This document shows positions 14,699-38,870 of a DNA stretch of 64,000 bases, one piece after another. A program made the position numbers and the translations under genes. The notes under the pieces are model-generated. The model searched no databases. It was not told the origin of the DNA and saw only the letters and a program-made list of their open reading frames with translations. The stretch covers positions 3,650,498 through 3,714,497 of the forward strand of contig OZ223236.1 of NCBI GenBank assembly GCA_965140445.1, in the 5' to 3' direction. The DNA comes from Candidatus Ozemobacteraceae bacterium. Lineage in GTDB: Bacteria > Muiribacteriota > Ozemobacteria > Ozemobacterales > Ozemobacteraceae. Within the stretch, counting starts at the first letter, position 1, and each line of letters opens with the position of its first letter.

Positions 14699-16900
14699 CT
14701 AGATACTTCCACGCTGTTTCAGTATTTTTACAATAGAATCCACAACCTGGATACCTTTTGTTCCGCGGCCAAAGCCGTCATCCATGCCACATTCCTTGGC
14801 GATTTCTCTTGTAACCTGAGTTCCTCCAGAAATTAGAATAATTTTATCTCTTATTCCTTTTTCTTTGCAAAGTTCATCAAGTTTTCGCATGTTATCTCTG
14901 TGAACATCATTGTGGGAAATAATAGTGCTAATTAAAATAGCTTGAGAGCCAGTTTCAATCGCAGCGTCAACCATTTTTCCTATCGGAGCTGAAGTTCCCA
15001 TGTAATGGTATTTAACTCCGTATTTTTCGATTCCACCGTGTTTAATATCAAGAATTTCGCGCATTCCTACAGAATGTTCGTCTTCTCCAACTGTACCGGC
15101 AACGACTTTTAATCCAATTTTCTTAATCCCGGCGCGAATTTCTTCCTCTGGGAGGATTATCTCTTTTGGCGGTATTTTTAGAGTGCTTTTATCAATAGCA
15201 AAATCAACTTTTCCCTTAACTTCAAGGAAAGTTCCTTCTGACGGATGCATTACCTGGGCATTAATAACTTCTGGGTCACGAAGTCCCATCTTTTTGGCAA
15301 CTTCAAGAGCCGCAACCTTTGCAACTTCAATTTCTTCCGGAAGAAACAGCTGAATAAGAATATTACCGTCGCCAGCCCATTCAGTTTCAGGTTTTATCAT
15401 TCCACCAGTTCTGAAATCTCTGGTTTTTTCCAAACGAAGGTTGCAATTGTCAGTATCGTCTATCTCATCAATGTAATCTATTTTTTCAGGGTTACAAATT
15501 GTACATCCGCCAATTGGATCACAAGGTTTTTTATACAGCTCAACGGCTTTGTTCTTGCCAAAAGTGCTACAAACAGGTGCTAAATAGTCATCTTCGCGCT
15601 CTATTATCGAATCTGCTCCCACGCCGCCCTTTCCATCGCGTGCAATTCCATCGCCGCTTCTTTCAGGATAACTGGCAGAATCAACAAAGAAACCTTTTTC
15701 TACTGCAGCAAAATAGCCACCAACTTCAAGGATTTCTTCCAGGAAGCAGATTGATTTTTCCTTGATATCGCGAACCATTTCACCTAAGGGGCCTTCTCTA
15801 TCAAGCTTTACAAGTTGCTTAATTCCATCGAGGGCTACGAAGGTCTGCTTTGCAGTCTCAATCCCTCTGATGTTATTGTAATGCCAGGGCACATTGCGTC
15901 CTTCGTCAGGAGTAATTGTACTCTGAATATCAGCCTTTGTAAGAGCAGAAATCAAAGTGTCAATCACATGAGTTCTGGTTGCTTCTTCAATATCAGCTTC
16001 AATGTATCTGGTATTTTGCTGAGCTCTAAACTTAAACTCATCAAAAATATCTCTTAATGCTACCGCATAAGGCAAGTCATACCAAAGTTTAGGGGAAGGA
16101 GGAGCACATGGAGGAACTGTCGACAATCCGATATGATCTTTTGGCATTCCACAGCCTACAGAGAAAGCGGAGTTCAAGCCATGCTGAACTAATAGCTCAG
16201 GCATAACTGACCAGCCCTCTTTTGCTGTAGCATTAGCATTATGAGCTCCATCGATCTGGAATATCTCAGCATCAGCCATAACCTTTTTTGCGCTAGCTGC
16301 ATCAACGAAAGATCTATACATGTTTACATTTCTGTATAAAACATTGTATTGAGGGTCCTGATGTGCGCCATTCACGCCTTCTTCAGCAAAAAGAACAGCA
16401 ACTTCCGGGCCTGCAACTCCTGATACGTATGAGTGAAAGTTAATAGGTCTTCCTACTTCTTCTTCTATAAGGTCACAGGCTTTCCTTGAAGCTCTAATCT
16501 GTTTGCGGGTAATTGGAACCCCTCCAACCCCTTCAGGAGTCCCTTCCAGGAGACCGTCAATGTGACTCTGGCCTGTGGTTCTAATAACCATAATATGGTC
16601 TGCGCCATGCCAGGCAGCCATTCGCATTCTGCGAATGTCATCTTCAAAGCGACCAGATGCGATTTCTGTAGTAATAACTGGTTTAGGCTGAGGATCAATA
16701 TTATCAAAATATTTTGCGGCCGGAAGAGGAACCGAATTTTTGAGTGGTTCAGCCATGTCTTTGTAATGAAATTTATGGGCTTTATATCCACCGGGAACTT
16801 CTTTACGCCATGTCCAGCCTTTTCTAGGTGGATGATACTTATCAAGGTCGTTAAGAATTTCTTCTATATTAATCTTCTTTTTAGGATCTAATTTTTGCAT
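14699..16900 (-). CDS. oraE: D-ornithine 4,5-aminomutase subunit E (PLP and B12-binding)
   Basis: 733 aa. C-terminal B12-binding DxHxxG motif (GEDEHSVG). Adjacent to a ~116-aa oraS-like gene. Confidence 0.8.
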   Translation of the reverse strand: MQKLDPKKKINIEEILNDLDKYHPPRKGWTWRKEVPGGYKAHKFHYKDMAEPLKNSVPLPAAKYFDNIDPQPKPVITTEIASGRFEDDIRRMRMAAWHGADHIMVIRTTGQSHIDGLLEGTPEGVGGVPITRKQIRASRKACDLIEEEVGRPINFHSYVSGVAGPEVAVLFAEEGVNGAHQDPQYNVLYRNVNMYRSFVDAASAKKVMADAEIFQIDGAHNANATAKEGWSVMPELLVQHGLNSAFSVGCGMPKDHIGLSTVPPCAPPSPKLWYDLPYAVALRDIFDEFKFRAQQNTRYIEADIEEATRTHVIDTLISALTKADIQSTITPDEGRNVPWHYNNIRGIETAKQTFVALDGIKQLVKLDREGPLGEMVRDIKEKSICFLEEILEVGGYFAAVEKGFFVDSASYPERSGDGIARDGKGGVGADSIIEREDDYLAPVCSTFGKNKAVELYKKPCDPIGGCTICNPEKIDYIDEIDDTDNCNLRLEKTRDFRTGGMIKPETEWAGDGNILIQLFLPEEIEVAKVAALEVAKKMGLRDPEVINAQVMHPSEGTFLEVKGKVDFAIDKSTLKIPPKEIILPEEEIRAGIKKIGLKVVAGTVGEDEHSVGMREILDIKHGGIEKYGVKYHYMGTSAPIGKMVDAAIETGSQAILISTIISHNDVHRDNMRKLDELCKEKGIRDKIILISGGTQVTREIAKECGMDDGFGRGTKGIQVVDSIVKILKQRGSI

Positions 16901-22327: not shown

Positions 22328-23191
22328 TTAATCAAAATCCCCATCATCATCTTCATGCGGATAATTCTTTTCCGCACACTCGGGACAAATCCCGTGACTA
22401 AATTTTGCCATAGAATGTTCCGAGATATAGTTTTCAACTCGATCCCAATAGCCTTTGTCATCCCTAATCTTTTTGCAGTGTGAGCAAATAGGAATAATAC
22501 CCTTAAGAGTTTTAATCTCCTCCATAGTATTCCTAAGCTCTTTAATTAAGTTTTCCTTTTCGGCATTAGATTCCTCTAATTCTTTAACAACCTTTTCCAC
22601 GGCTTTTGTTGAATTATTTAAGCCTTCCTGGACCATTCCCCTTGATTTCTCCATTACAAAGGAAAAAAGAAAAATAATCAAATAGGCTGAAACACTTCTA
22701 ACTCTTACATTAAAATCATATTTTGCAACAAAACTAAAATGCTTATCAAAAAAGAAAACTGTAAGCATGACCAGCAATAAACACCAGGCAATTCTGCTCC
22801 CATTTTTTTCTCCCAGAAGGAAAACCGAAATTATTGGAAAAGTGAAGGACCAAACATAACCAGAATTAGAAGATCCCCCAGAAATAAGCAAAAAACAATA
22901 CAATAAAAAGCCTACAGAAACACCCATTATAGAAAATAGCCTATAGTTTTTTGTTTTTCTAAGCAAAATCAAAAATAATAACAAAACGATTGAACAGGAA
23001 AAATCTACAAAAGCCAATTGATAATTTCCCTGATAGCTAGCAATGGGTGCCAGAATCAGAAGAGTAGCCATGGAAAATAAAAGGGTTAAATTCAACATCA
23101 GAGTCCGTCTCAAAGCTTCTATTTCATGCTTCTTTGACAAACCTGAAGAAATAAAATCCCAGAACCATTCTTTTAAAGTTTTCAGAGACAT
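22328..23191 (-). CDS. Membrane sensor (multi-TM N-terminus) - coiled coil - C-terminal Cys4 zinc-ribbon-like module (paralog A)
   Basis: Five or six predicted TM helices. C-terminus LKGIIPICSHCKKIRDDKGYWDRVENYISEHSMAKFSHGICPECAEKNYPHEDDDGDFD. Confidence 0.75.
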   Translation of the reverse strand: MSLKTLKEWFWDFISSGLSKKHEIEALRRTLMLNLTLLFSMATLLILAPIASYQGNYQLAFVDFSCSIVLLLFLILLRKTKNYRLFSIMGVSVGFLLYCFLLISGGSSNSGYVWSFTFPIISVFLLGEKNGSRIAWCLLLVMLTVFFFDKHFSFVAKYDFNVRVRSVSAYLIIFLFSFVMEKSRGMVQEGLNNSTKAVEKVVKELEESNAEKENLIKELRNTMEEIKTLKGIIPICSHCKKIRDDKGYWDRVENYISEHSMAKFSHGICPECAEKNYPHEDDDGDFD

Positions 23192-23224: not shown

Positions 23225-24079
23225 TTAATCATCATCAAAGTCCTCTTCAGAGTATAGCTCTTTAATGCAGTCTGGACAAATACCATGACTAAATTGTGCC
23301 TCAGTATGGTCGGTAATAAAATTCTCGACTCTATCCCAGAAGCCCTCATCGTTTCTTATTTTTTTACAGCACGAGCACATTGGTAAAATTCCTTGTAAGG
23401 TGCTGACCTCATTCATTAATTCCTTTAACTCATGAATGAGATTTTCCTTAACTGCTTGAGCTTTTTCAAGTTCTGTAACAGACTTTTCCATTTCGACTTT
23501 AGACTTATTCAAGTTCTTTTGAATAGAATCTCTCAATTCTTCCATCACAGCAGCAAAAAGAAAGATTAAAAAATATGCCGACAATGCTCTAATTGCAATG
23601 TTGAAATCATAACTCTCCAAATAAGGAATTTCATTTCCCGCGAAAAAAACAATACCAACAAAACTAAACAAAACAAGACTAAAAAAAGCGCCACGCTGGT
23701 TGCCAAGCAAAAAAATAGAAATCAAAGGGTAAGTAAAAATCCAAACATGTGAAGCTCCACCAACACCACCTGTACCTGATAAATAAGCAAAAAAGACACC
23801 CGTTAGCGCTACTGCAAAGGTCGAACAGAATACATAATTGTGAGTTTTCTTATGATAAAAAAATAGAAAAAGTAAAATACCTAAAGTAATTGAATCAGCA
23901 ACTACAACTCTGTAGCTACCCTGAAAGTATGATAAAAGACCTAAAACAAAAATAAAAAAGCCGCCAAGAAAAACCAGAATATTAAACATAAAGACACGTC
24001 TAAGTTCTTCAATGTTATTTTTATCCTTAAGGCCTCCCGAAAAGAGATACCAAATTATTTTTTTTGATTCATTCTTCAT
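23225..24079 (-). CDS. Membrane sensor - coiled coil - Cys4 module (paralog B, tandem duplicate of A)
   Basis: Same architecture. C-terminus LQGILPMCSCCKKIRNDEGFWDRVENFITDHTEAQFSHGICPDCIKELYSEEDFDDD. Confidence 0.75.
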   Translation of the reverse strand: MKNESKKIIWYLFSGGLKDKNNIEELRRVFMFNILVFLGGFFIFVLGLLSYFQGSYRVVVADSITLGILLFLFFYHKKTHNYVFCSTFAVALTGVFFAYLSGTGGVGGASHVWIFTYPLISIFLLGNQRGAFFSLVLFSFVGIVFFAGNEIPYLESYDFNIAIRALSAYFLIFLFAAVMEELRDSIQKNLNKSKVEMEKSVTELEKAQAVKENLIHELKELMNEVSTLQGILPMCSCCKKIRNDEGFWDRVENFITDHTEAQFSHGICPDCIKELYSEEDFDDD

Positions 24080-26231: not shown

Positions 26232-27284
26232 TTGCGTGAAATCAAAATCATAAATACAATTAAAGTCTGGAGAAAAGATTTGTTTAAGTATTTAAAAATT
26301 AAGTTTGTATTTATTATCGCACTGTTAGCGTCCTTGTCCCCCCTATATGCGGGCAAAATTTCCACGGACGAAATTAAACGACTTCAGAATGTAAACGAAA
26401 CACTTATCAACCATATTTCAATAATGGAAGAAGAGTTTGAAGCCTCACCTTCGTTAAATAAATACAAAAAAGAATATTTGTCAGCAATCCCGACTGATTC
26501 CATACTACCAGTTGCAAATACGGTTATGGCTAAAACTATTGCTGGCGCGCCGTTTGTGTTTCTTGGAGACGAACATACGACCCCTCAATCTCAAAGAAAT
26601 ACTATTTCTGTTTTGCAAATGATGAAAAAGAACCCTGCCCCTTTAACCCTGGTTATTGAGTGGATTGATATAAGTTACCAAAAAGAGATAAACAACTTTC
26701 TACAGGGAAAAATAAAAATTTCTGATTTAAGAAAATGCATATCTTTTGATAAATACTGGGGATTTTCATGGGCTAATTATTCAAAAATATTGGGTGCAGC
26801 TAAAAAATTGAAAACCCCCATTCTTTTAACTGAAAGATTGAAAAACAGCCATTCCTTATCTGATAGAGACACTTTTATTGTAAAAAAGATTTTAGAACAC
26901 AGAGAAAGTAATCCCAAAATGCGATATCTGGTTGTTTATGGCGATTACCATATTCTAGGAAAACTTCATCTGTCTGAAAAAGCTGCGAAAGCAGGTTTGA
27001 AGCCTCAATTGCTTCTTCTGGGTGGTGCTTCAAAGGTTTATTGGAAGCTTTTAAACAAAATCCAGGATCCCGACAAAACTTCCTTCGCAAAATTGTCCAG
27101 AGGGATTTTTTACATAAGGAATGGAACACCCTTAGAGAGAAATTTATCTTACCGCAACTACCTGCTTAAAATTCTTGGTTACAGTAAAGACGATTTTGAC
27201 ATTTGGGTGGACAAAAGAGACATTTTACCAATTTCTGTTTCAACTAACCGATTTGACTCATTACATTCTACACCAGCCAGATAA
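26232..27284 (+). CDS. Secreted ChaN/Tiki-like family protein (putative)
   Basis: Signal peptide. GDEHTTPQSQ resembles the GxxH motif of the ChaN/Tiki superfamily. Low certainty. Confidence 0.45.
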   Translation: MREIKIINTIKVWRKDLFKYLKIKFVFIIALLASLSPLYAGKISTDEIKRLQNVNETLINHISIMEEEFEASPSLNKYKKEYLSAIPTDSILPVANTVMAKTIAGAPFVFLGDEHTTPQSQRNTISVLQMMKKNPAPLTLVIEWIDISYQKEINNFLQGKIKISDLRKCISFDKYWGFSWANYSKILGAAKKLKTPILLTERLKNSHSLSDRDTFIVKKILEHRESNPKMRYLVVYGDYHILGKLHLSEKAAKAGLKPQLLLLGGASKVYWKLLNKIQDPDKTSFAKLSRGIFYIRNGTPLERNLSYRNYLLKILGYSKDDFDIWVDKRDILPISVSTNRFDSLHSTPAR

Positions 27285-28374: not shown

Positions 28375-29376
28375 CTAATCGTTGTCTTCCCAGTCCAGTT
28401 CTGGATAAAGCTCCTTTGCGCAATCGGGGCAAATTCCATGACTTATTTCTGCATCAGTATTATCGTAGATGTAAACTTCTAATTTACTCCAGTATCCTTT
28501 ATCGTTTCTAATTTTGTGACACTTACAACATAGAGGAAGCAGGCCGGAAAGAGTTTTAATTTTGGAATTTGCAAGCTGAAGATTTTTAATTAATTCCTCT
28601 CTTTCAATTGCATATCGTCTTTTTTCGGTTACATCAGCGTGCGTACCACACATCCTTGATGGTTTTCCCTGCTCATCATAGGAAACGACCTTTGCCCTGT
28701 CCAATATCCATTTTATAGATGAATCCTTGCAAATCATTCTATATTCAAGCTCATGGATTGGCTTCTTTCCATCCAGGTGGTCTTTAATGGAATTCCATGC
28801 TTTTGCCCTATCCTCTGGATGCACAAAATCTTCCCACTGTTTTACCGTAAACTGTATTTCTTCAAATGTATATCCTAGGATTTTAGCCCACATCTCATTT
28901 CGTTGGACTTCTCCAGTTTTCAAATTCCAGTCCCAAAAGCCAAGTTCACTAGCATCCAATACTAATCTAGTTCTTTCTTCACTATCCAGAACTTTTCTTT
29001 CGGCAATAATTCGAGGGGTAATATCAACAAAACTAACGCTGAACTGACCTTTTTTAGGAGAAAATGCGTTAACATGGAAGTGTTTATTTAGTTCCTGAGA
29101 AAAATTTTCAAACTGAATAGGTTCCCCTGTTAGGGCAACTTTTCCATATTTTTGGATCCAACTGTGCTCTGTACCAGGCATCAAATCAAGAATAGTACGA
29201 CCGATAATATCTTCCGCCTTCATACCAGTCAACTTTTCAAAAGCAGGATTAACTAGTAAGAACCTATAGTCAACGGGATTTCCTTGGTCATCACAAATAA
29301 TTTCATGATGCGCAAAACCAAACACCGCCTCCGCAAACAACAGGGCGGCTAATCCAGTGTCAACTTTAGAATCCAC
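28375..29376 (-). CDS. Cytoplasmic 2xPAS sensor - coiled coil - Cys4 module (paralog C)
   Basis: Two PAS folds. C-terminus LSGLLPLCCKCHKIRNDKGYWSKLEVYIYDNTDAEISHGICPDCAKELYPELDWEDND. Confidence 0.8.
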   Translation of the reverse strand: MDSKVDTGLAALLFAEAVFGFAHHEIICDDQGNPVDYRFLLVNPAFEKLTGMKAEDIIGRTILDLMPGTEHSWIQKYGKVALTGEPIQFENFSQELNKHFHVNAFSPKKGQFSVSFVDITPRIIAERKVLDSEERTRLVLDASELGFWDWNLKTGEVQRNEMWAKILGYTFEEIQFTVKQWEDFVHPEDRAKAWNSIKDHLDGKKPIHELEYRMICKDSSIKWILDRAKVVSYDEQGKPSRMCGTHADVTEKRRYAIEREELIKNLQLANSKIKTLSGLLPLCCKCHKIRNDKGYWSKLEVYIYDNTDAEISHGICPDCAKELYPELDWEDND

Positions 29377-29411: not shown

Positions 29412-29843
29412 TTAGCTTAAAAAGCTAACATATCCTTTATCTGTACCTTTGATATGATTAATTAACCAATCTTTTAGGAAGTTCATAATTTCAATGCTTA
29501 ATCCAATTTTTCCGGAATCAAAAGATTTTTTAAAATCAGAGATTCTTGCTTCAAATTCTTTATGCTTTGCTTTATGAGCAATTACTTCTGAATAAGAGGT
29601 TCTTTCAAACATTGATTCCTCTTTTCTAAAGTGATTTTGTGTGTAGGAAATCAATTCTTTCAGGATTTTTCCTTGAATATCATTTCCTTTACCTTCTTTA
29701 AGCGCATCAAAAAGCTCATTTATCATTGATACCAGCTTTTGATGTTGAGTATCTAGCTCTGCGTTTCCAACACTATAAGAATTATTCCAGTTTAACAAAG
29801 CCATTAAAATCACCTCGATTAAAAATACTGCAACTCTGTACAA
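29412..29843 (-). CDS. Hemerythrin-like metal-binding protein (bacteriohemerythrin)
   Basis: WNNSYSVG...LDTQHQKL...H-x-EE..F...H pattern typical of hemerythrin His/Glu ligands. 143 aa. Confidence 0.75.
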   Translation of the reverse strand: MYRVAVFLIEVILMALLNWNNSYSVGNAELDTQHQKLVSMINELFDALKEGKGNDIQGKILKELISYTQNHFRKEESMFERTSYSEVIAHKAKHKEFEARISDFKKSFDSGKIGLSIEIMNFLKDWLINHIKGTDKGYVSFLS

Positions 29844-29904: not shown

Positions 29905-30873
29905 TTAAATTATCAGGTCTTTTTCTGCTTGTGATTGATTAAAGGCGGAAAAAGCCGGGTCATAAAGCATAAGCTTTTTACTTCTTACGCCTTGCTGTAA
30001 ATCGTGCCCCTCATCATTCCAGCCAACAAAAATTTTACAATCACCACCAACTTCCTTCATTCTGCGAATTATCAGTATTAAAGCTTTTACTGCGTCTTCC
30101 ATAAAAGCCCTTGGATGATCAGGGAAAGCAAATGTACCTTTTTCACTTGGGTAATAAGGATGGAAATTAAAATCAACAGTGACATGATGTTTTTTCATTA
30201 GCTCCAGCCCATAATTTATTGTAGCTACAGAATCCGCAACAGCTTCTTTTCCAGAGATTCCAGGCGGCTGAAATAAAACATTTATATCTACCGATGTTTT
30301 TGGCAAAAATTCTTCCAGAACACCAAAAACATTATCCACCTGGTCTCGGGTAATTTTTTTATTCAAATTAACTAATCGAACCGTATCATCTTGGCTTTCA
30401 AGACCTATAGTAATGGCAAAGGTTTGATCATCTCTTAATTTTTGAATAAAAGGATTAATTCTTTGCCTTGTTATAAATTGTTCTCGAGAATCAAAGCTGA
30501 TTCTTCTAATTGATGGTTGGGAACTTACAAAATCTAAAATACCATCAATAGTTCTGGTTGAGAACTCAACTTCATTCATAGTTGAACCATAATTATAAAT
30601 TACCAAATGGTTAATTTTTCCCCAAACATCTGCATAATATTGCTTAAAAAATTCCAGTCTTTTTAAATTCATTTCTGAAGTAAATTGCAATCCTTCTCCC
30701 TCACCAATATCGCAATGATTGCATTGAACTGCGTGAAATGGGCATTTTCCACCTACAGCTTCATTTCCAAAAACAATAGCAAGCCTTAATCCACGTGGTC
30801 CTGTAACGGGGTTAAAAAGAGAGCCTTCAGGAGGTTTAATATAATCTTCCATTTTAAAATTCACTTTTCCCAT
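29905..30873 (-). CDS. Hypothetical protein with a CPFHAVQCNHC (C-x6-C-x2-C) cluster, possibly a radical-SAM-like/TIM-barrel enzyme
   Basis: A Cys cluster near the N-terminus but not the canonical Cx3Cx2C. Translationally adjacent to the carbamoyltransferase gene. Confidence 0.5.
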   Translation of the reverse strand: MGKVNFKMEDYIKPPEGSLFNPVTGPRGLRLAIVFGNEAVGGKCPFHAVQCNHCDIGEGEGLQFTSEMNLKRLEFFKQYYADVWGKINHLVIYNYGSTMNEVEFSTRTIDGILDFVSSQPSIRRISFDSREQFITRQRINPFIQKLRDDQTFAITIGLESQDDTVRLVNLNKKITRDQVDNVFGVLEEFLPKTSVDINVLFQPPGISGKEAVADSVATINYGLELMKKHHVTVDFNFHPYYPSEKGTFAFPDHPRAFMEDAVKALILIIRRMKEVGGDCKIFVGWNDEGHDLQQGVRSKKLMLYDPAFSAFNQSQAEKDLII

Positions 30874-30875
30874 TT

Positions 30876-32582
30876 CTATTTTCTGACTACAAAGTTTTCT
30901 ATAAACAAAATGTCTATTCCAGTTTTTAAAAAGGTGTTAATTGCATCCTCTGGACTCATAACAATTGGTTCAGAATCATTAAAAGAAGTGTTTAAAACCA
31001 TTGGAACACCTGTTAACTCATAAAAACTTGAAATGAGCTTATGATAAAGAGGATTGGTCTTATTTGAAACGGTTTGTATTCTGCTTGTATTATCAACATG
31101 CACTACAGCTGGAATTTGTGAAGCTTTTTCTTTTTTGCATGGGTAAGCCAAAAGCATGAAATCAGAAGATTGAGAATCCCCAAAAACCTCAAACCATTCG
31201 TTCACATTTTCGGACAGAACACTTGGAGCAAACGGACGAAACTCTTCTCTATGCTTGATTTTTTTATTCAAAATTTCACGCATATCCTTGCGGCGAGGGT
31301 CTGCGAGTAAAGATCTATTTCCCAGAGCTCTGGGCCCCATTTCCATCTGCCCCTGAAACCACCCAACGATTTTTCCTTCGCTTATGGCTTTTGCAGCTGA
31401 CTCAGCAGGCATATTTATTTTTTCATATCTTAACCCAGCTCTTTCAATTACATCGACAATTCTATCTTCATCATAGCTAGGTCCATGATAGGCATGAATC
31501 TGCTCAAATTTCCTTTCGCCTCCCTCAAGAACGCACCAGACGTAAAGAGCTGCACCCAGAGCTGTTCCAGCGTCATTAGCAGCAGGCTGAATAAAAACTT
31601 TCCTGAAACCGGAATCTCTTTGAATTAATGCATTAGCAACGCAATTTAACGCTGTTCCTCCTGCCATGCAAAGATTTTTAGAAGTTGACATTTCCAATAA
31701 TCCTTTACAAAGAGCCAGCAAAGCTTTTTCAGTAAATCTTTGAAGACCTGCAGCAATATCCATGTGCCTTTCCAACAATTCTTCACCTGGCATTCTTGAG
31801 GGACCAAAGATCTTTTCAAGTGCGGTATAATCTTCATAGCGAAAAGATAGATTTTTTGAATCTAATTCAAACTTTCCGGTAGAATCAAAGGTAATAATTT
31901 TTGAAAATTCGTTTGCAAACTTTTCTGGATTTCCATAGCTGCTTAAACCCATAAGCTTACAAGCATCATGTTCTGAGAAACCAAGAAACTTGCAAAACTT
32001 TTCCCAGAGGAATCCCAGGCTATGTGGGTAAGGAATGCTGAAAAGTTCAGTAATGTTGTTCTTAATTCCTTTAAAAGCTGAGACTGTATTTATCTCTCCA
32101 ATACCGTCTACAATCAAAATTGTTGATTCTTCAAATTCTGAGCAAAAAAATGCGCTTGCTGCATGGCTCATGTGGTGGTCAACCCAACGAAATTTATTGC
32201 TAATATCTTCTTTGGCAAGCTTGCTAAGCACATCAGGAACAGACAATAAAAGTTCATGAAACCTGTTTTCTCCTGATTTACTTCCCCATAGACTATCCAC
32301 GACTCGTAAATCTTTACCAATATTTTGAAGTCGTCCATTTTGGGAAAAGGAATATGCAAAAAAATCAATGTCAGAAAAGCTAATTCCAGCTAACTCGAGA
32401 CATTTTTTTATTGCCAATTCAGGAAGTTGATGAGGGTTATTTACTGAAGACTTTTTTCCTCTTTTAACTCGGTTAAGTCTTTCTTCTTCAATAAAACAAA
32501 CAAGTTCGCCGTTTTTTAATAATGCAGCAGAAGATTCATGATATGCGCTATTTATTCCTAGTATGTACATTGGATTACTCAA
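30876..32582 (-). CDS. Carbamoyltransferase of the NodU/CmcH/TobZ family
   Basis: N-terminal Kae1/ASKHA-like MYILGINSAYHESSAALLKNGELV with HxxH-type metal site, and a C-terminal YrdC-like region. 568 aa. Confidence 0.8.
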   Translation of the reverse strand: MSNPMYILGINSAYHESSAALLKNGELVCFIEEERLNRVKRGKKSSVNNPHQLPELAIKKCLELAGISFSDIDFFAYSFSQNGRLQNIGKDLRVVDSLWGSKSGENRFHELLLSVPDVLSKLAKEDISNKFRWVDHHMSHAASAFFCSEFEESTILIVDGIGEINTVSAFKGIKNNITELFSIPYPHSLGFLWEKFCKFLGFSEHDACKLMGLSSYGNPEKFANEFSKIITFDSTGKFELDSKNLSFRYEDYTALEKIFGPSRMPGEELLERHMDIAAGLQRFTEKALLALCKGLLEMSTSKNLCMAGGTALNCVANALIQRDSGFRKVFIQPAANDAGTALGAALYVWCVLEGGERKFEQIHAYHGPSYDEDRIVDVIERAGLRYEKINMPAESAAKAISEGKIVGWFQGQMEMGPRALGNRSLLADPRRKDMREILNKKIKHREEFRPFAPSVLSENVNEWFEVFGDSQSSDFMLLAYPCKKEKASQIPAVVHVDNTSRIQTVSNKTNPLYHKLISSFYELTGVPMVLNTSFNDSEPIVMSPEDAINTFLKTGIDILFIENFVVRK

Positions 32583-32656: not shown

Positions 32657-33991
32657 TTACTCAAAATCCTTTTTAATCTTTTCAAAGCATTCTGGGCAAA
32701 TTCCATGAGAAAATTTGGCTTCAGAGTGTTTTGAAATATACTCCTCCATTTGGCTCCAGGCACCAGCATCGTTTCTGATTTTTTTACAATAAGAACAGAT
32801 GGGTAATATTCCCTGGAGCTTTTTTATCTGCTCAAAAGCCTCGCCAAGCTGAATAATTAAACCTTCTCTGCACTTTTCATTTTCTTTAATATCTGTTATG
32901 TCTGTGGCAATTTCTAAACGAACGACTCTGCCGTCTATCCATTTTATTGCCTTATCTCTACAAGCATACCATCGCTCGGTTAAAGGATTTAATAATTCCC
33001 ACTCAATAACACCATTTACTTCCCCATCATTACCTATCAATCTATCATTGGTGCAAAATTCACATGGCTTTCCACTCGTAACTCCTTGAAAATACTCATA
33101 GCATTTTCTTTTGCCTGGTTCACCAAAAGTTTTTTTGCAAAACTCATTAACTGCAATTAGCTCATAAGTTTCCATATCAGAAACATAAACAGGCATATCT
33201 ATTGAATCAATAATAATTTGATAAGCTTTTCTATCAGAATTTAAACTATCCTGAAATTGCTCATTTTGACTAATTTTACTCCCAATCCACCCTATCAACA
33301 GCATTATTAAAACAATCCCTAACACCCATACAGAAACCATTGAATCATAAAGATGGCGGACCATTTCTTTCTCATTGTTTAAAAGCTTATCAAGGGACAA
33401 TTTAATACCAACTCCACCAACCAGACTTCCAATTTTAAAGCTTTTATCTGTATGGCATCTTAAGCAATTAGCATCTGCAATAAGAGGTTTCATTGAGCAA
33501 AAGACCGTGTCGTTTCTATCACCAAAGTTAAAAAGGTATTCCTTTTCAGGATTTTCTTTCAGAATTCTAAGAGCTTCCAATTCCCAACCTATAGCTTTAT
33601 TTATTGGGTTTAAAGGGTTTAATCCAACAATTCTCCCTTTTATGCCATACATTTCGGAGTAATGTTCCATTGTCTGTTTTAAAACCTGAGCGGGACTCAT
33701 AAGAGTTAAATTCACTCCATTTTCATTGAAAATATCCCGATCTGGCAAATGAGATAGATGGGGGTTAGGCTCTCCTATTTCACTGATCTTAACGTAAACT
33801 CCTCCATGCCGGTTAACCCATGATCTGAATGCCCAATCCTTATTAGTAATAGTTTTAGCCATGTTTTTAGCCAATTCCAGCGTATGCTCGTGATAATTTT
33901 CTGCGGTAAAGTGAGCAACTAAAATCACTGAAGATATCCAAAAAACCACCACAAAAAAAGCAGCAAGCAAAAATCTATAATTTTTGGGCAT
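32657..33991 (-). CDS. TM - periplasmic DUF3365/Tll0287-like heme-c (CxxCH) sensor - TM - Cys-rich PAS-like domain - coiled coil - Cys4 module (paralog D)
   Basis: CLRCH heme-c motif at the end of the periplasmic domain. C-terminus LQGILPICSYCKKIRNDAGAWSQMEEYISKHSEAKFSHGICPECFEKIKKDFE. Confidence 0.8.
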   Translation of the reverse strand: MPKNYRFLLAAFFVVVFWISSVILVAHFTAENYHEHTLELAKNMAKTITNKDWAFRSWVNRHGGVYVKISEIGEPNPHLSHLPDRDIFNENGVNLTLMSPAQVLKQTMEHYSEMYGIKGRIVGLNPLNPINKAIGWELEALRILKENPEKEYLFNFGDRNDTVFCSMKPLIADANCLRCHTDKSFKIGSLVGGVGIKLSLDKLLNNEKEMVRHLYDSMVSVWVLGIVLIMLLIGWIGSKISQNEQFQDSLNSDRKAYQIIIDSIDMPVYVSDMETYELIAVNEFCKKTFGEPGKRKCYEYFQGVTSGKPCEFCTNDRLIGNDGEVNGVIEWELLNPLTERWYACRDKAIKWIDGRVVRLEIATDITDIKENEKCREGLIIQLGEAFEQIKKLQGILPICSYCKKIRNDAGAWSQMEEYISKHSEAKFSHGICPECFEKIKKDFE

Positions 33992-34070
33992 AAAAGATCT
34001 CTCATTTTTTTCTAATTTATTTTATTTTATCGCTTTTATGTAAAAGCTTCAATTCAAGAAATTTAAAGTA

Positions 34071-35471
34071 CTAAAATCCCTTCATTTCATCTAAGGAAAG
34101 CTCTTCATGCCGTTCAACCTTTATGTATGCTAACTTGATCAATTCTATTAATTGATCTCTATTTAAAAATTTGTTCAGGCTTACATCAGGTATGTTAGCG
34201 TAAATTGAAAGACGTTTTTCTGCCCTTTCTTCTGCAGATTCAAATTCGTCTAACGCCTTATTGGCTCCATCTACATCATTGTAAACAGTGGATATACACA
34301 TCTCATGATTAAGATTTTTTGCCAATTCCGTTCCTGGGTATGCGGAAACAGGAAAGAAACCAGCCTCATGCATGCCAAGCTTCGCGCACTCCACAGCAAA
34401 ATTAATGGTTTTACGCATTTCTTCAATCGTTTCATCGGGAAATCCAAGCATAAAAAAACATTTAGTCAGAATTCCGTTTTCTGCTAAAGCTTTTACGCTT
34501 CGTTTAACCTTATCAAGATTCAGGTGTTTCCTGATTTTGCTTTGCCTTTCCTGCACTCCTGTCTCTACGCCCAGAGCAACATAGTGACATCCAGTCTCTG
34601 CCAGCCTCTTAACATCATTTAATTCAAGGTGATCAGCTCGACCAATACAGCAATACAAGCGATTTAAATCAGTAATCTGATCAAAGAATTCATTTAACCA
34701 TTTTTTATCAGAGAAAAAAGAATCATCCATAAAACCGAAGTTAGAATTTGAGAATAATTCCTTATAGTGATTTAATTCTTTAATAAGCCTTTCAACACTA
34801 ACTCTGCGCATTTTGCCAGGCCAGAGAACAGGTGTTGCGCAAAAAGTACATTTAAAAGTACATCCCCTTGAGGTACTCAAGAACAGCCATCTTGGCATGC
34901 CAAGCTTTTCCTGGAATGAAAGATATTTTTCAATATCAACCAATGAGAAATCAAGAAAAGGAAGTTCATCAAGGTTTTCCAAGTGATCCCTGGCAGGATT
35001 TTCTATGACCCTGCCTTCTTCTTTGAAAGCCAGGCCTGGAATTAACTTTAGATTTTTAAACTCACTTTTTAAAAGCTCTTCTAAAGTAAGTTCTCCTTCT
35101 CCGATTACTCCAAAGTCCAATGAATCCTGTATAAGTAAATCATTGCTGGAGGTTGTCATCATTGGACCTCCACCTATAGTAAAAATACTGGAGTCCGTTT
35201 CTTTTACTTTTTGCAGAAATTCAATGGCGGTTTTAAAAGTTCCCTGATAAAACGGAACTCCAACTGCTTTTGGGCAATAAGCAAACACCTTTGCTATAGT
35301 TTCATTTAATCCAATATTTTCACTGACAACATCTATGATACTGACTTTTAAGCCTCTGGTGTTCAAATACGAAGCAAGATAAAGCAGATTCAAAGGCGGT
35401 TTTAAATCCATTCTTCCTTTTTCATGCCAATTTAAAGGCGGATTTACTAAAACTAGATCAGCAAAAGACAT
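34071..35471 (-). CDS. B12-binding domain-containing radical SAM protein
   Basis: N-terminal B12-binding-like Rossmann region. Radical SAM CTFKCTFC (Cx3Cx2C). Confidence 0.8.
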   Translation of the reverse strand: MSFADLVLVNPPLNWHEKGRMDLKPPLNLLYLASYLNTRGLKVSIIDVVSENIGLNETIAKVFAYCPKAVGVPFYQGTFKTAIEFLQKVKETDSSIFTIGGGPMMTTSSNDLLIQDSLDFGVIGEGELTLEELLKSEFKNLKLIPGLAFKEEGRVIENPARDHLENLDELPFLDFSLVDIEKYLSFQEKLGMPRWLFLSTSRGCTFKCTFCATPVLWPGKMRRVSVERLIKELNHYKELFSNSNFGFMDDSFFSDKKWLNEFFDQITDLNRLYCCIGRADHLELNDVKRLAETGCHYVALGVETGVQERQSKIRKHLNLDKVKRSVKALAENGILTKCFFMLGFPDETIEEMRKTINFAVECAKLGMHEAGFFPVSAYPGTELAKNLNHEMCISTVYNDVDGANKALDEFESAEERAEKRLSIYANIPDVSLNKFLNRDQLIELIKLAYIKVERHEELSLDEMKGF

Positions 35472-37454: not shown

Positions 37455-38870
37455 CTATTCTGGCTTAATTTTATCTTTTCTTAAAAGCTCATCAGCATGT
37501 TCAGGGTAAAATTTTTCTACACATTCAGGACAGATACTATGGGAGAAATTCAAATCAGTATTTTTCCCAAAAAAGCTTTCTATTTTTTCCCAATAACCGG
37601 TATCGGTTCTAACATTTTTGCAATGAGAACAGATTGGAAGCATTTCTTTTAGGGTTTCAACTTTTTCCGCCAACTTTGCATTGGCTTCCTGCAAATCTGC
37701 TTTATAGCTTTCGATTTTATCCATATAGCCATTAAAAGACCTTGCAAGCTCTCCAACCTCATCTTCTGAGCTGACAGATAAACGTAATGAAAAATCGTCT
37801 TTTTCACATTGAGCTATCTTTTGAATTTTTTCTGTTAAAGGCTTGGTAATAGAATAACTAACAGCAGTGGAAACAGGAATCAGAATTATCATTGTTAAAA
37901 CAATTAGTCCCAGGAAAACTAATTCAAACAACACTAATGGATGATACAATTCATCAAGATAGCATGATGAGGCAATTATCCACCCTAATTCAGGTATATC
38001 TTCGAATATAACCAACTTCTCTCTTACAGCCGGTTCACCAGGATTTTGCCATGGGTAGATTATTTTTCCAGATTTTCTTTCAGTCATTTCCCTGATAAAA
38101 TATCTTCCGGAAGAATCTTTAGAACCTGAAATGTTTTGACCTTCTAGAATAGGATGAACCAGGCAGTTTCCTGAATAATCAATCAAATAAGAGTAACCAG
38201 TATTTCTAAATTTTAGACCTAGAATTCCCTCCCGAAAATCCTCAACATCAATAATCTCTTTAAAATCTTCAACATAAAAAGAAGCTGAAATAATCCAATC
38301 CCAAGGCTCAAAATAAAGCATATAGAGGGCTTTTTTCCTTTTTTCAACCTCTCCTGGATTTTTCCACTCGTACATTAAAAACCCATTCTTCTCAAGAGTT
38401 TGTCTTTTAACAAAAGCAAAATTAGAAACATCTTGATCTACAAGCTCTTCATGTGGATGCATGCGTAAAAAGCCTTTACTATCAAGGCAATAAACATATC
38501 CATTTTTACCTATCACCTGAGTCTTGAGAATTTTATCTGCAGCTTTTCTCGCTTCTTCTTCTGTAATTTTTCCTTCTAATACCTGCTTATGCAAATCTGA
38601 AACGACTTGTAAACTAGAATTGGCAATAGATTTCAAATGATTTCTGATTGAAGACAAAATTGAGGTTTTTACTAATCTCTGCATGAGCTTTGTAGAAATT
38701 GAAAGCTCAGTCTCTACATTTTGTTCAATCTGATTTTTTAAAAGAAAATAGGTAACTGAGCTGAAAATTATTAGTATAGCTGAAAATGCAATAAAATTAG
38801 CAATTACAAGCTTTGTACGGATTTTTTGCTTATTAAAAAAACCTGACAATTCATAATCCCCTTCATACAA
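37455..38870 (-). CDS. TM - dCache_1 - TM - HAMP - coiled coil - Cys4 module (paralog E). MCP-like architecture with the MCP domain replaced.
   Basis: Cache region GYVYCLDSKG...HP. HAMP at ITKPLTEKIQKIAQ...VGELARSFNGYM. C-terminus LKEMLPICSHCKNVRTDTGYWEKIESFFGKNTDLNFSHSICPECVEKFYPEH. Confidence 0.8.
   Translation of the reverse strand: MYEGDYELSGFFNKQKIRTKLVIANFIAFSAILIIFSSVTYFLLKNQIEQNVETELSISTKLMQRLVKTSILSSIRNHLKSIANSSLQVVSDLHKQVLEGKITEEEARKAADKILKTQVIGKNGYVYCLDSKGFLRMHPHEELVDQDVSNFAFVKRQTLEKNGFLMYEWKNPGEVEKRKKALYMLYFEPWDWIISASFYVEDFKEIIDVEDFREGILGLKFRNTGYSYLIDYSGNCLVHPILEGQNISGSKDSSGRYFIREMTERKSGKIIYPWQNPGEPAVREKLVIFEDIPELGWIIASSCYLDELYHPLVLFELVFLGLIVLTMIILIPVSTAVSYSITKPLTEKIQKIAQCEKDDFSLRLSVSSEDEVGELARSFNGYMDKIESYKADLQEANAKLAEKVETLKEMLPICSHCKNVRTDTGYWEKIESFFGKNTDLNFSHSICPECVEKFYPEHADELLRKDKIKPE

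Follow-up and report, generated by a model that had tools for sequence, protein, structure and literature searches.

The DUF3365 domain was renamed sCache_heme in a 2026 preprint, in which its CxxCH motif was reported in 99% of the members and HAMP, PAS, MCPsignal, HisKA/HATPase, GGDEF, EAL and cyclase domains were given as its partners (bioRxiv 10.64898/2026.02.01.703092). According to the same work, a member fused to signaling domains shows tight binding of nitric oxide (NO) and no stable complex with O2, and a stand-alone member behaves as a redox protein. A sCache_heme-HAMP receptor without enzymatic output acts through a bound Ser/Thr kinase (bioRxiv 10.64898/2026.05.25.727664), which provides a precedent for non-enzymatic output in this family. 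On the cytoplasmic side of the membrane, PAS domains with three-cysteine sites have been characterized in OrpR, where C52, C61 and C65 hold a [4Fe-4S] cluster (PMC8359166), and in B. licheniformis NreB, where C63, C66 and C78 together with a labile sulfur ligand hold a [2Fe-2S] cluster (structure 9WEX; PMC13478379). Here, we describe gene D, located in a 64,000-nucleotide stretch of contig OZ223236.1 from a Candidatus Ozemobacteraceae bacterium (hereafter, the window), which joins a sCache_heme domain to a PAS domain with a conserved cysteine triad (Cys3-PAS) and to a small C-terminal Cys2-His-Cys2 module (Cys4 module).

We consider it fairly probable that the product of gene D is a membrane receptor that takes in signals through two modules and has a non-enzymatic output, and that the adjacent B12-binding radical SAM gene is not part of this system. 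Gene D is a variant within a known kind of receptor; what is less ordinary is that it carries two widespread cysteine modules which we have not found characterized.

Domain architecture and membrane topology

An earlier note on this DNA had read gene D as a protein with two transmembrane (TM) segments enclosing a periplasmic domain, followed by a PAS domain and then by the Cys4 module. This layout was confirmed by the 444-amino-acid (aa) open reading frame (ORF) and by hydropathy, domain and motif scans (Table 1). Two hydrophobic segments, at aa 7-29 and 216-240, flank a domain of about 186 aa. With K3 and R6 placed ahead of TM1 in a protein with two such segments, aa 30-215 are predicted, from hydropathy only, to be extracytoplasmic, as heme-c attachment requires. 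An extracytoplasmic domain between two TM helices is likewise present in Tll0287 (5B82) and in the P. azotoformans Cache_heme-HAMP NO receptor. As in the sCache_heme-HAMP receptor, no intrinsic enzymatic output was recognized in gene D. It differs from sCache_heme receptors in the absence of a HAMP domain, since TM2 leads through an N-cap helix into the Cys3-PAS, which is followed by the Cys4 module; neither of these two modules appears in the published list of its partners.

When the whole protein and its PAS segment were compared with the sequences of the PDB, no match was obtained up to E=10, and profiles alone matched. Similarly, NCBIfam gave no match at E <0.1 for the whole protein. The cytoplasmic portion (aa 246-444) was modeled with AlphaFold2 (AF2) from 31 aligned sequences, with a mean predicted local distance difference test (pLDDT) score of 84.6. 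The motifs described below were invariant or almost so in homologues at 21-55% identity, which is more than expected by chance.

The periplasmic heme domain

Assignment of the periplasmic domain to the c-type heme sensors of the DUF3365 type, as had been suggested, was borne out by the two examinations fixed beforehand. The hidden Markov model of PF11845 (Tll0287-like, formerly DUF3365) matched aa 38-183 with 55.1 bits (E=1.5e-14), well above its gathering cut-off of 24.1, and the two cysteines and the histidine of CxxCH, whose lack of conservation had been named in advance as counting against the assignment, were invariant in 34/34 homologues that cover the domain. In addition, a profile of the subfamily matched the sequence of the Tll0287 crystal structure 5B82 (E=5.2e-6), with CxxCH placed on CxxCH. 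Besides this motif, gene D has kept H62, R56/W58, the GG, NP and RD motifs and W136/E137. The domain had been described as about 180 aa long and ending in CLRCH; its size and the presence of the motif hold, and its end has to be moved, as CLRCH lies about 35 aa before TM2.

The heme domain of gene D is divergent within its subfamily. Among 41 columns conserved at >=85%, 10 are changed in gene D (N99S, M103V, R105K, T122V, S123G, G147N, R165C, G184S, Y185F and R191V), including the methionine of the subfamily motif NPAYM, which is valine in gene D, and three conserved arginines. The two closest full-length homologues, at 44% and 41% identity and with the same architecture, showed 0 and 1 deviations, respectively, and most others 0-2. 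By ungapped extrapolation of the profile alignment only, the NPAYM methionine falls within about 2 residues of the position expected for Cys68, the axial ligand of Tll0287, a cysteine that gene D lacks. If this methionine were the distal ligand of the subfamily, its replacement by valine in gene D would leave the heme open, which would suit a gas sensor. With this methionine lost and three arginines exchanged, gene D probably has a heme pocket whose distal side is altered or more open.

The heme domain was also found in other combinations. At least about 20 among the best 120 matches were sCache_heme-TM-Cys4 proteins of about 304-345 aa without a PAS domain. As only PF11845 is annotated on them, we infer that such proteins could be scored as stand-alone or output-less in architecture censuses based on Pfam. 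Two Nitrospirae-type homologues share the sCache_heme-TM-Cys3-PAS chassis and carry a coiled-coil end (…FVGRELRMIELK…) in place of the Cys4 module.

The cytoplasmic PAS domain and its cysteine triad

A motif scan placed the cysteines of the PAS domain at C285-x11-C297-x12-C310-x2-C313, which corrects the spacing C-x12-C-x12-C-x2-C given in the earlier note. Three of the four cysteines named there are conserved, which supports a cysteine-based site in this domain: C297 is present in 89/94 homologous PAS segments, and C310 and C313 in 91/94 each. The fourth, C285, is not a conserved position, with glycine as the commonest residue (54/94), and C344, elsewhere in the domain, was found in 49/94. 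In a set of 19 diverse members, two of them at 21% and 30% identity, C297, C310 and C313 were among only 7 invariant columns. Since C285 is not conserved, the conserved feature is, to judge from these alignments, a C-x12-C-x2-C triad with a facultative fourth cysteine, and not a set of four. Positions E332, N335, D346, R355, R358 and Q302 were also conserved at about 85-90%.

The AF2 model showed a five-stranded PAS core with pLDDT >90. In it, strands 2 and 3 flank the triad, and the CxxC pair directly precedes a short helix. The best Foldseek matches of the model were LOV and other PAS structures (E of about 3e-6). Elsewhere, Cys3-PAS domains at 40-57% identity were fused to GGDEF, HisKA/HATPase and receiver domains as well as to the Cys4 module, and dozens of proteins, each about 310-330 aa long, showed the combination with GGDEF. 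Such a variety of outputs is what is expected of an input module, and the distribution indicates that the Cys3-PAS is a mobile one. In the libraries used, neither Pfam nor NCBIfam has a model that covers this domain, and literature searches gave nothing specific to it, which is no proof that it is undescribed.

The resemblance to NreB that had been pointed out holds as a loose analogy, and membership in the NreB type does not. Both NreB (S. carnosus; B. licheniformis 9WEX) and OrpR (D. vulgaris) likewise have a cytoplasmic PAS domain with three conserved cysteines between strand 2 and strand 3, and in the profile alignment the CSYC of NreB coincided with C310-x2-C313. However, the ligand order is reversed: in NreB (C63-x2-C66-x11-C78; PMC13478379) the third cysteine lies downstream of the CxxC pair, whereas in gene D it lies upstream, and the NreB-type pattern C-x2-C-x11-C(-x2-C) does not occur in the PAS domain of gene D. 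OrpR differs too, with a spacing of C-x8-C-x3-C. The match of the PAS profile to the NreB domain of 9WEX was marginal (E=0.007) and no better than that to the LOV domain of YtvA (E=0.002).

Among solved structures, the best matches of the PAS domain by both structure and sequence were LOV domains (YtvA 2PR5, PpSB1-LOV and the Mrub_1259 LOV). C297 aligned with the photoactive cysteine of GxNCRFLQ, and Q302 and N335 aligned with a Gln and an Asn of YtvA which we take to be flavin contacts. The flavin-binding signature of LOV domains is nevertheless incomplete in this PAS domain, in which only that Cys, one Gln and one Asn align: the Fα region of LOV is replaced in gene D by a P-C-x-F-C-T-N knuckle, and Tyr and Ala/Thr stand in the gene D subfamily where LOV has its second flavin Asn and its Iβ Gln, respectively. 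By analogy, the triad is most likely an iron-sulfur (Fe-S) or other metal center situated where LOV and NreB carry their cofactors; because it is not collinear with the sites of NreB and OrpR, and because the best match is LOV, an Fe-S cluster is only one option.

The Cys4 module, a proposed output domain

The C-terminal module follows the pattern C-x2-C-x26-H-x2-C-x2-C, and its C, C, H, C and C were invariant in the module alignments, which makes Zn binding plausible. Five copies lie in the window, all within 16 kb, and the inputs that precede them are MASE6 (two tandem genes), PAS-PAS, sCache_heme with Cys3-PAS (gene D) and dCache-HAMP. A profile built from these five copies matched 24,196 representatives of 50%-identity clusters at E <=1e-3, and 19,503 at E <=1e-10. 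In the top matches, the span from first to last ligand was 37 residues in 154/155 modules, and the module lay <=25 residues from the C-terminus in 134/148 proteins. It was found behind receiver (REC), PAS, HAMP, Cache and MASE6 inputs, and some proteins carried two REC-Cys4 units. Since it follows a signaling helix and many types of input, the module occupies the position of an output domain; its small size argues against catalysis. Proteins of 84-132 aa that seem to consist of little more than a helix and the module, without a recorded Pfam domain, were encoded on contigs of 0.14-4 Mb; such long contigs indicate that the module also stands alone and that these proteins are not merely gene fragments.

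No Pfam model reached its threshold on the Cys4 module, the best being DUF3039 with 17.8 bits against a cut-off of 22.7, NCBIfam likewise had no model for it, and the precomputed Pfam annotation was blank for nearly all the module-only proteins listed. The names of Cys4 proteins in the source were only "hypothetical protein," "response regulator, partial" or "sensor with HAMP domain." Searches of the literature yielded nothing specific on the module, which does not prove it to be undescribed. In the AF2 model, it is formed by a helix, a knuckle hairpin, another helix and a second knuckle at the N-terminus of a helix. The C4 finger of DksA/TraR and the ZAS anti-sigma motif, both of them small Zn-binding modules behind a coiled coil, resemble it in that a long helix ends in two CxxC-type knuckles, with a His directly before the second. 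Their spacings differ, being C-x2-C-x17-C-x2-C in DksA and H-x3-C-x2-C in ZAS, and no Pfam model of DksA/TraR, ZAS or any zinc-finger family reached threshold on the module.

Two further candidate sites were discarded. The sequence CCKCH of a Cys4 paralogue (paralogue C) was rejected as a heme site, as it is located within the cytoplasmic Cys4 knuckle and is a chance match. Similarly, the conserved KKIRDD of the module was rejected as a c-di-GMP I-site of the RxxD type because its spacing does not fit.

The radical SAM neighbor and the surrounding genes

The window has a G+C content of about 36% and is rich in signaling genes; no tRNA genes were found in it. Upstream of gene D on the same strand, as had been noted, lies a gene for a B12-binding radical SAM protein, whose domains were confirmed and whose distance to gene D is 79 nucleotides (nt) and not 80. 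The 466-aa product is a class B radical SAM enzyme with a CxxxCxxC motif (C-TFK-C-TF-C) in its translation, and no NCBIfam model, equivalogs included, reached its cut-off on it. The 79-nt spacer is AT-rich and contains a promoter-like site; no terminator-like site was seen in it. Gene D belongs to a run of eight co-directional genes, including a hemerythrin gene and three Cys4 sensors, in which the only strong terminator is at 28369-28324. The sequence is compatible with co-transcription of gene D and the radical SAM gene as well as with separate transcripts.

A functional link between the two genes, proposed earlier, was not supported, because the neighborhood was not conserved when viewed from the sensor, from the radical SAM gene or from the genes downstream. 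In 12 related loci, neither gene had a relative of the other beside it. No radical SAM gene was present at three loci of the two closest homologues of the sensor, and no sCache_heme or Cys4 gene at four loci of the three closest radical SAM homologues. Downstream of gene D, a carbamoyltransferase gene is followed by a gene for a radical-SAM-like protein of 322 aa, which had no Pfam match and matched the archaeosine RaSEA model TIGR01210 weakly (52 bits against a cut-off of 212). This pair was kept in the same order and orientation in about 30/36 metagenomic loci with the 322-aa gene, and sensor D, the B12 radical SAM gene and the hemerythrin gene were absent from all 36. The adjacency of gene D to the radical SAM gene appears incidental.

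Relatives of the radical SAM protein at 40-59% identity came, among the matches with a named organism, mostly from Candidatus Riflebacteria, and some shared a contig with a second homologue. On Riflebacteria-like contigs, such relatives often adjoin large signaling genes (HAMP-SpoIIE, multi-PAS hybrid kinases and CheB/CheR fragments), with no partner common to them. The window also encodes a second B12-dependent enzyme, a 733-aa lysine/ornithine aminomutase-like protein with a B12-binding domain (14699-16900, minus strand). Given the hemerythrin gene and a ChaN-like gene near the sensors (Table 1), genes related to O2, iron or heme cluster with them.

Table 1. Features of gene D and of its surroundings, with positions numbered along the window.
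Feature	Position	Strand	Basis
Gene D ORF, 444-aa receptor (TM1, sCache_heme, TM2, Cys3-PAS, helix, Cys4 module)	32657..33991	-	ORF and domain boundaries
TM1 / signal anchor, aa 7-29	33905..33973	-	Kyte-Doolittle 19-residue windows >1.6, peak 2.83
Predicted periplasmic sCache_heme (DUF3365/Tll0287-like) domain, aa 30-215	33347..33904	-	PF11845 match aa 38-183 and subfamily profile
CLRCH putative heme-c attachment motif, aa 176-180 (C176, C179, H180)	33452..33466	-	Conservation, alignment with Tll0287
Divergent heme-domain stretch, aa 99-191	33443-33880	-	10/41 highly conserved positions replaced
TM2, aa 216-240	33272..33346	-	Hydropathy peak 2.65
Cytoplasmic PAS domain, aa 250-373	32873..33244	-	AF2 model and Foldseek
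Cys triad C297-x12-C310-x2-C313 within PAS	33053..33103	-	Conservation in PAS homologues
Linker helix, PAS DIT motif to Cys4 module, aa 366-396	32804..32896	-	Continuous helix, AF2 model residues 121-148
Cys4 module PICSYCKK...SHGICPEC, aa 397-435 (C399, C402, H429, C432, C435)	32687..32803	-	Motif scan
Five Cys4 module copies within 16 kb	22376-22492, 23267-23383, 28420-28536, 32687-32803, 37521-37637	-	
B12-binding radical SAM gene, 466 aa	34071..35471	-	PF02310 47.7 bits, PF04055 74.6 bits
79-nt AT-rich spacer, radical SAM gene to gene D, promoter-like TTGAAG-17-TAAAAT (34052-34024)	33992..34070	-	
Carbamoyltransferase gene (NodU-like, 568 aa)	30876-32582	-	Downstream of gene D, 74-nt gap
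322-aa radical-SAM-like gene	29905-30873	-	2 nt from carbamoyltransferase gene
Hemerythrin-domain gene, 143 aa, between radical-SAM-like and PAS-PAS-Cys4 genes	29412-29843	-	
ChaN-like heme-binding (Cofac_haem_bdg) gene	26232-27284	+	

Discussion

The observations on gene D made in the earlier note were partly confirmed by this analysis, and its interpretation was partly supported. We propose that gene D is a membrane receptor, presumably a dimer, in which, as the sequence shows, a sCache_heme domain lies between two TM helices and its CxxCH corresponds to the motif to which the family attaches heme c covalently. From what is known of that family, the heme would sense a diatomic gas or a redox signal in the periplasm, with NO as the precedent in members fused to signaling domains. 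Sequence and model show TM2 leading, with no HAMP domain between them, directly into a PAS domain of the widespread C-x12-C-x2-C subfamily. There, the triad would hold a metal center, most likely Fe-S by analogy with OrpR and with NreB of B. licheniformis and their three-cysteine sites, and this center would add a redox input on the cytoplasmic side. In the model, the DIT motif of the PAS domain is joined by a continuous helix of some 28 residues, aa 366-393, to the 37-residue Cys4 module, which would bind Zn and relay the signal by binding a partner, a role suggested because the module is too small for a known type of enzyme. Taken to its full extent, that is, with a heme c in the periplasm and an Fe-S or metal PAS domain in the cytoplasm jointly controlling a new Zn-binding and partner-binding output domain present in about 24,000 50%-identity clusters, the proposal is a tentative one, which we would rather offer for scrutiny than assert.

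Several observations weigh against the proposed receptor. The replacements in the heme domain mean that it may be impaired or re-tuned rather than being a typical NO sensor. The PAS domain has its triad in an order other than that of NreB and OrpR, and the solved structure closest to it in sequence is a LOV domain. As for the output, the model of the Cys4 module is of moderate confidence (pLDDT 63-75), no Foldseek neighbor of the module was found below E=3, and no partner for it was identified.

Different explanations of the two inputs were considered together with these points. The PAS triad could be a Zn(II) site with a structural or regulatory role, or it could switch between thiol and disulfide, instead of being an Fe-S center, so that the PAS domain would sense by other means or only transmit the periplasmic signal. 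A CxxC pair before a short helix with a third cysteine about 12 residues upstream, predicted confidently by AF2 without any cofactor (pLDDT 81-89), is a common finding for Zn sites, the triad has no universally conserved fourth ligand given that C344 is facultative, and WalK offers a precedent for a cytoplasmic PAS domain regulated by Zn (bioRxiv 10.1101/405365). Yet the three-cysteine PAS sites characterized so far hold Fe-S clusters, and the strongly conserved polar residues of the domain point to a functional cofactor or ligand site over a purely structural metal; we therefore regard this explanation as somewhat doubtful. It seems less probable still, and in our opinion unlikely, that the heme domain of gene D has drifted to the point of losing perception or changing its ligand specificity, with the cytoplasmic PAS domain left as the main input. 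The concentration of deviations in gene D, compared with almost none in its closest homologues, would be accounted for in this way, but the ORF is intact, the Pfam score is well above threshold, the CxxCH and the other residues and motifs listed above are retained, and loss of a distal ligand derived from the protein is typical of gas sensors.

Regarding the output and the genomic setting, the Cys4 module might be a nucleic-acid-binding zinc finger, in which case the proteins carrying it would be one-component regulators and gene D would be membrane-tethered like ToxR or CadC. A conserved basic patch, K-K-I-R, after the first knuckle, the conserved W32 and Y38 (module numbering) and the fact that its weak Foldseek matches were all zinc fingers are in keeping with such a role. 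Nevertheless, all these matches had E >3, no DNA-binding family in Pfam matched, several copies are attached to polytopic membrane proteins (MASE6), and a shared partner on which the five paralogues converge would more easily explain their occurrence within 16 kb, so that a nucleic-acid-binding role seems quite improbable to us. Most improbable of all, in our view, is that gene D is transcribed together with the B12 radical SAM gene and with the carbamoyltransferase/radical-SAM-like pair downstream, and coupled to them in function, for instance in the redox regulation of a biosynthetic cluster. The common strand, the short gaps of 79 and 74 nt, the absence of a terminator-like site until 28369-28324 and the co-directional run with its hemerythrin and Cys4 sensor genes would be compatible with this, but they are opposed by the promoter-like sites in both spacers that flank gene D and by the lack of shared neighbors at all three sets of homologous loci.

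The preferred reading of gene D as a membrane receptor with two inputs and a non-enzymatic output connects a sensor class that was recognized only in 2026, the heme-c Cache domain, to two widespread and conserved modules. If the cysteine triad holds an Fe-S or other metal center, one protein would integrate redox or gas signals from the periplasm and the cytoplasm. Should the Cys4 module prove to be a genuine output domain, its partner would explain the signaling of thousands of receptors, linked to receiver, PAS, HAMP, Cache or MASE6 domains. Were the joint control by both compartments true as well, a major class of bacterial signaling output would be one that we did not find in Pfam or NCBIfam, and some sCache_heme proteins regarded as stand-alone would be receptors with a cryptic Cys4 output.

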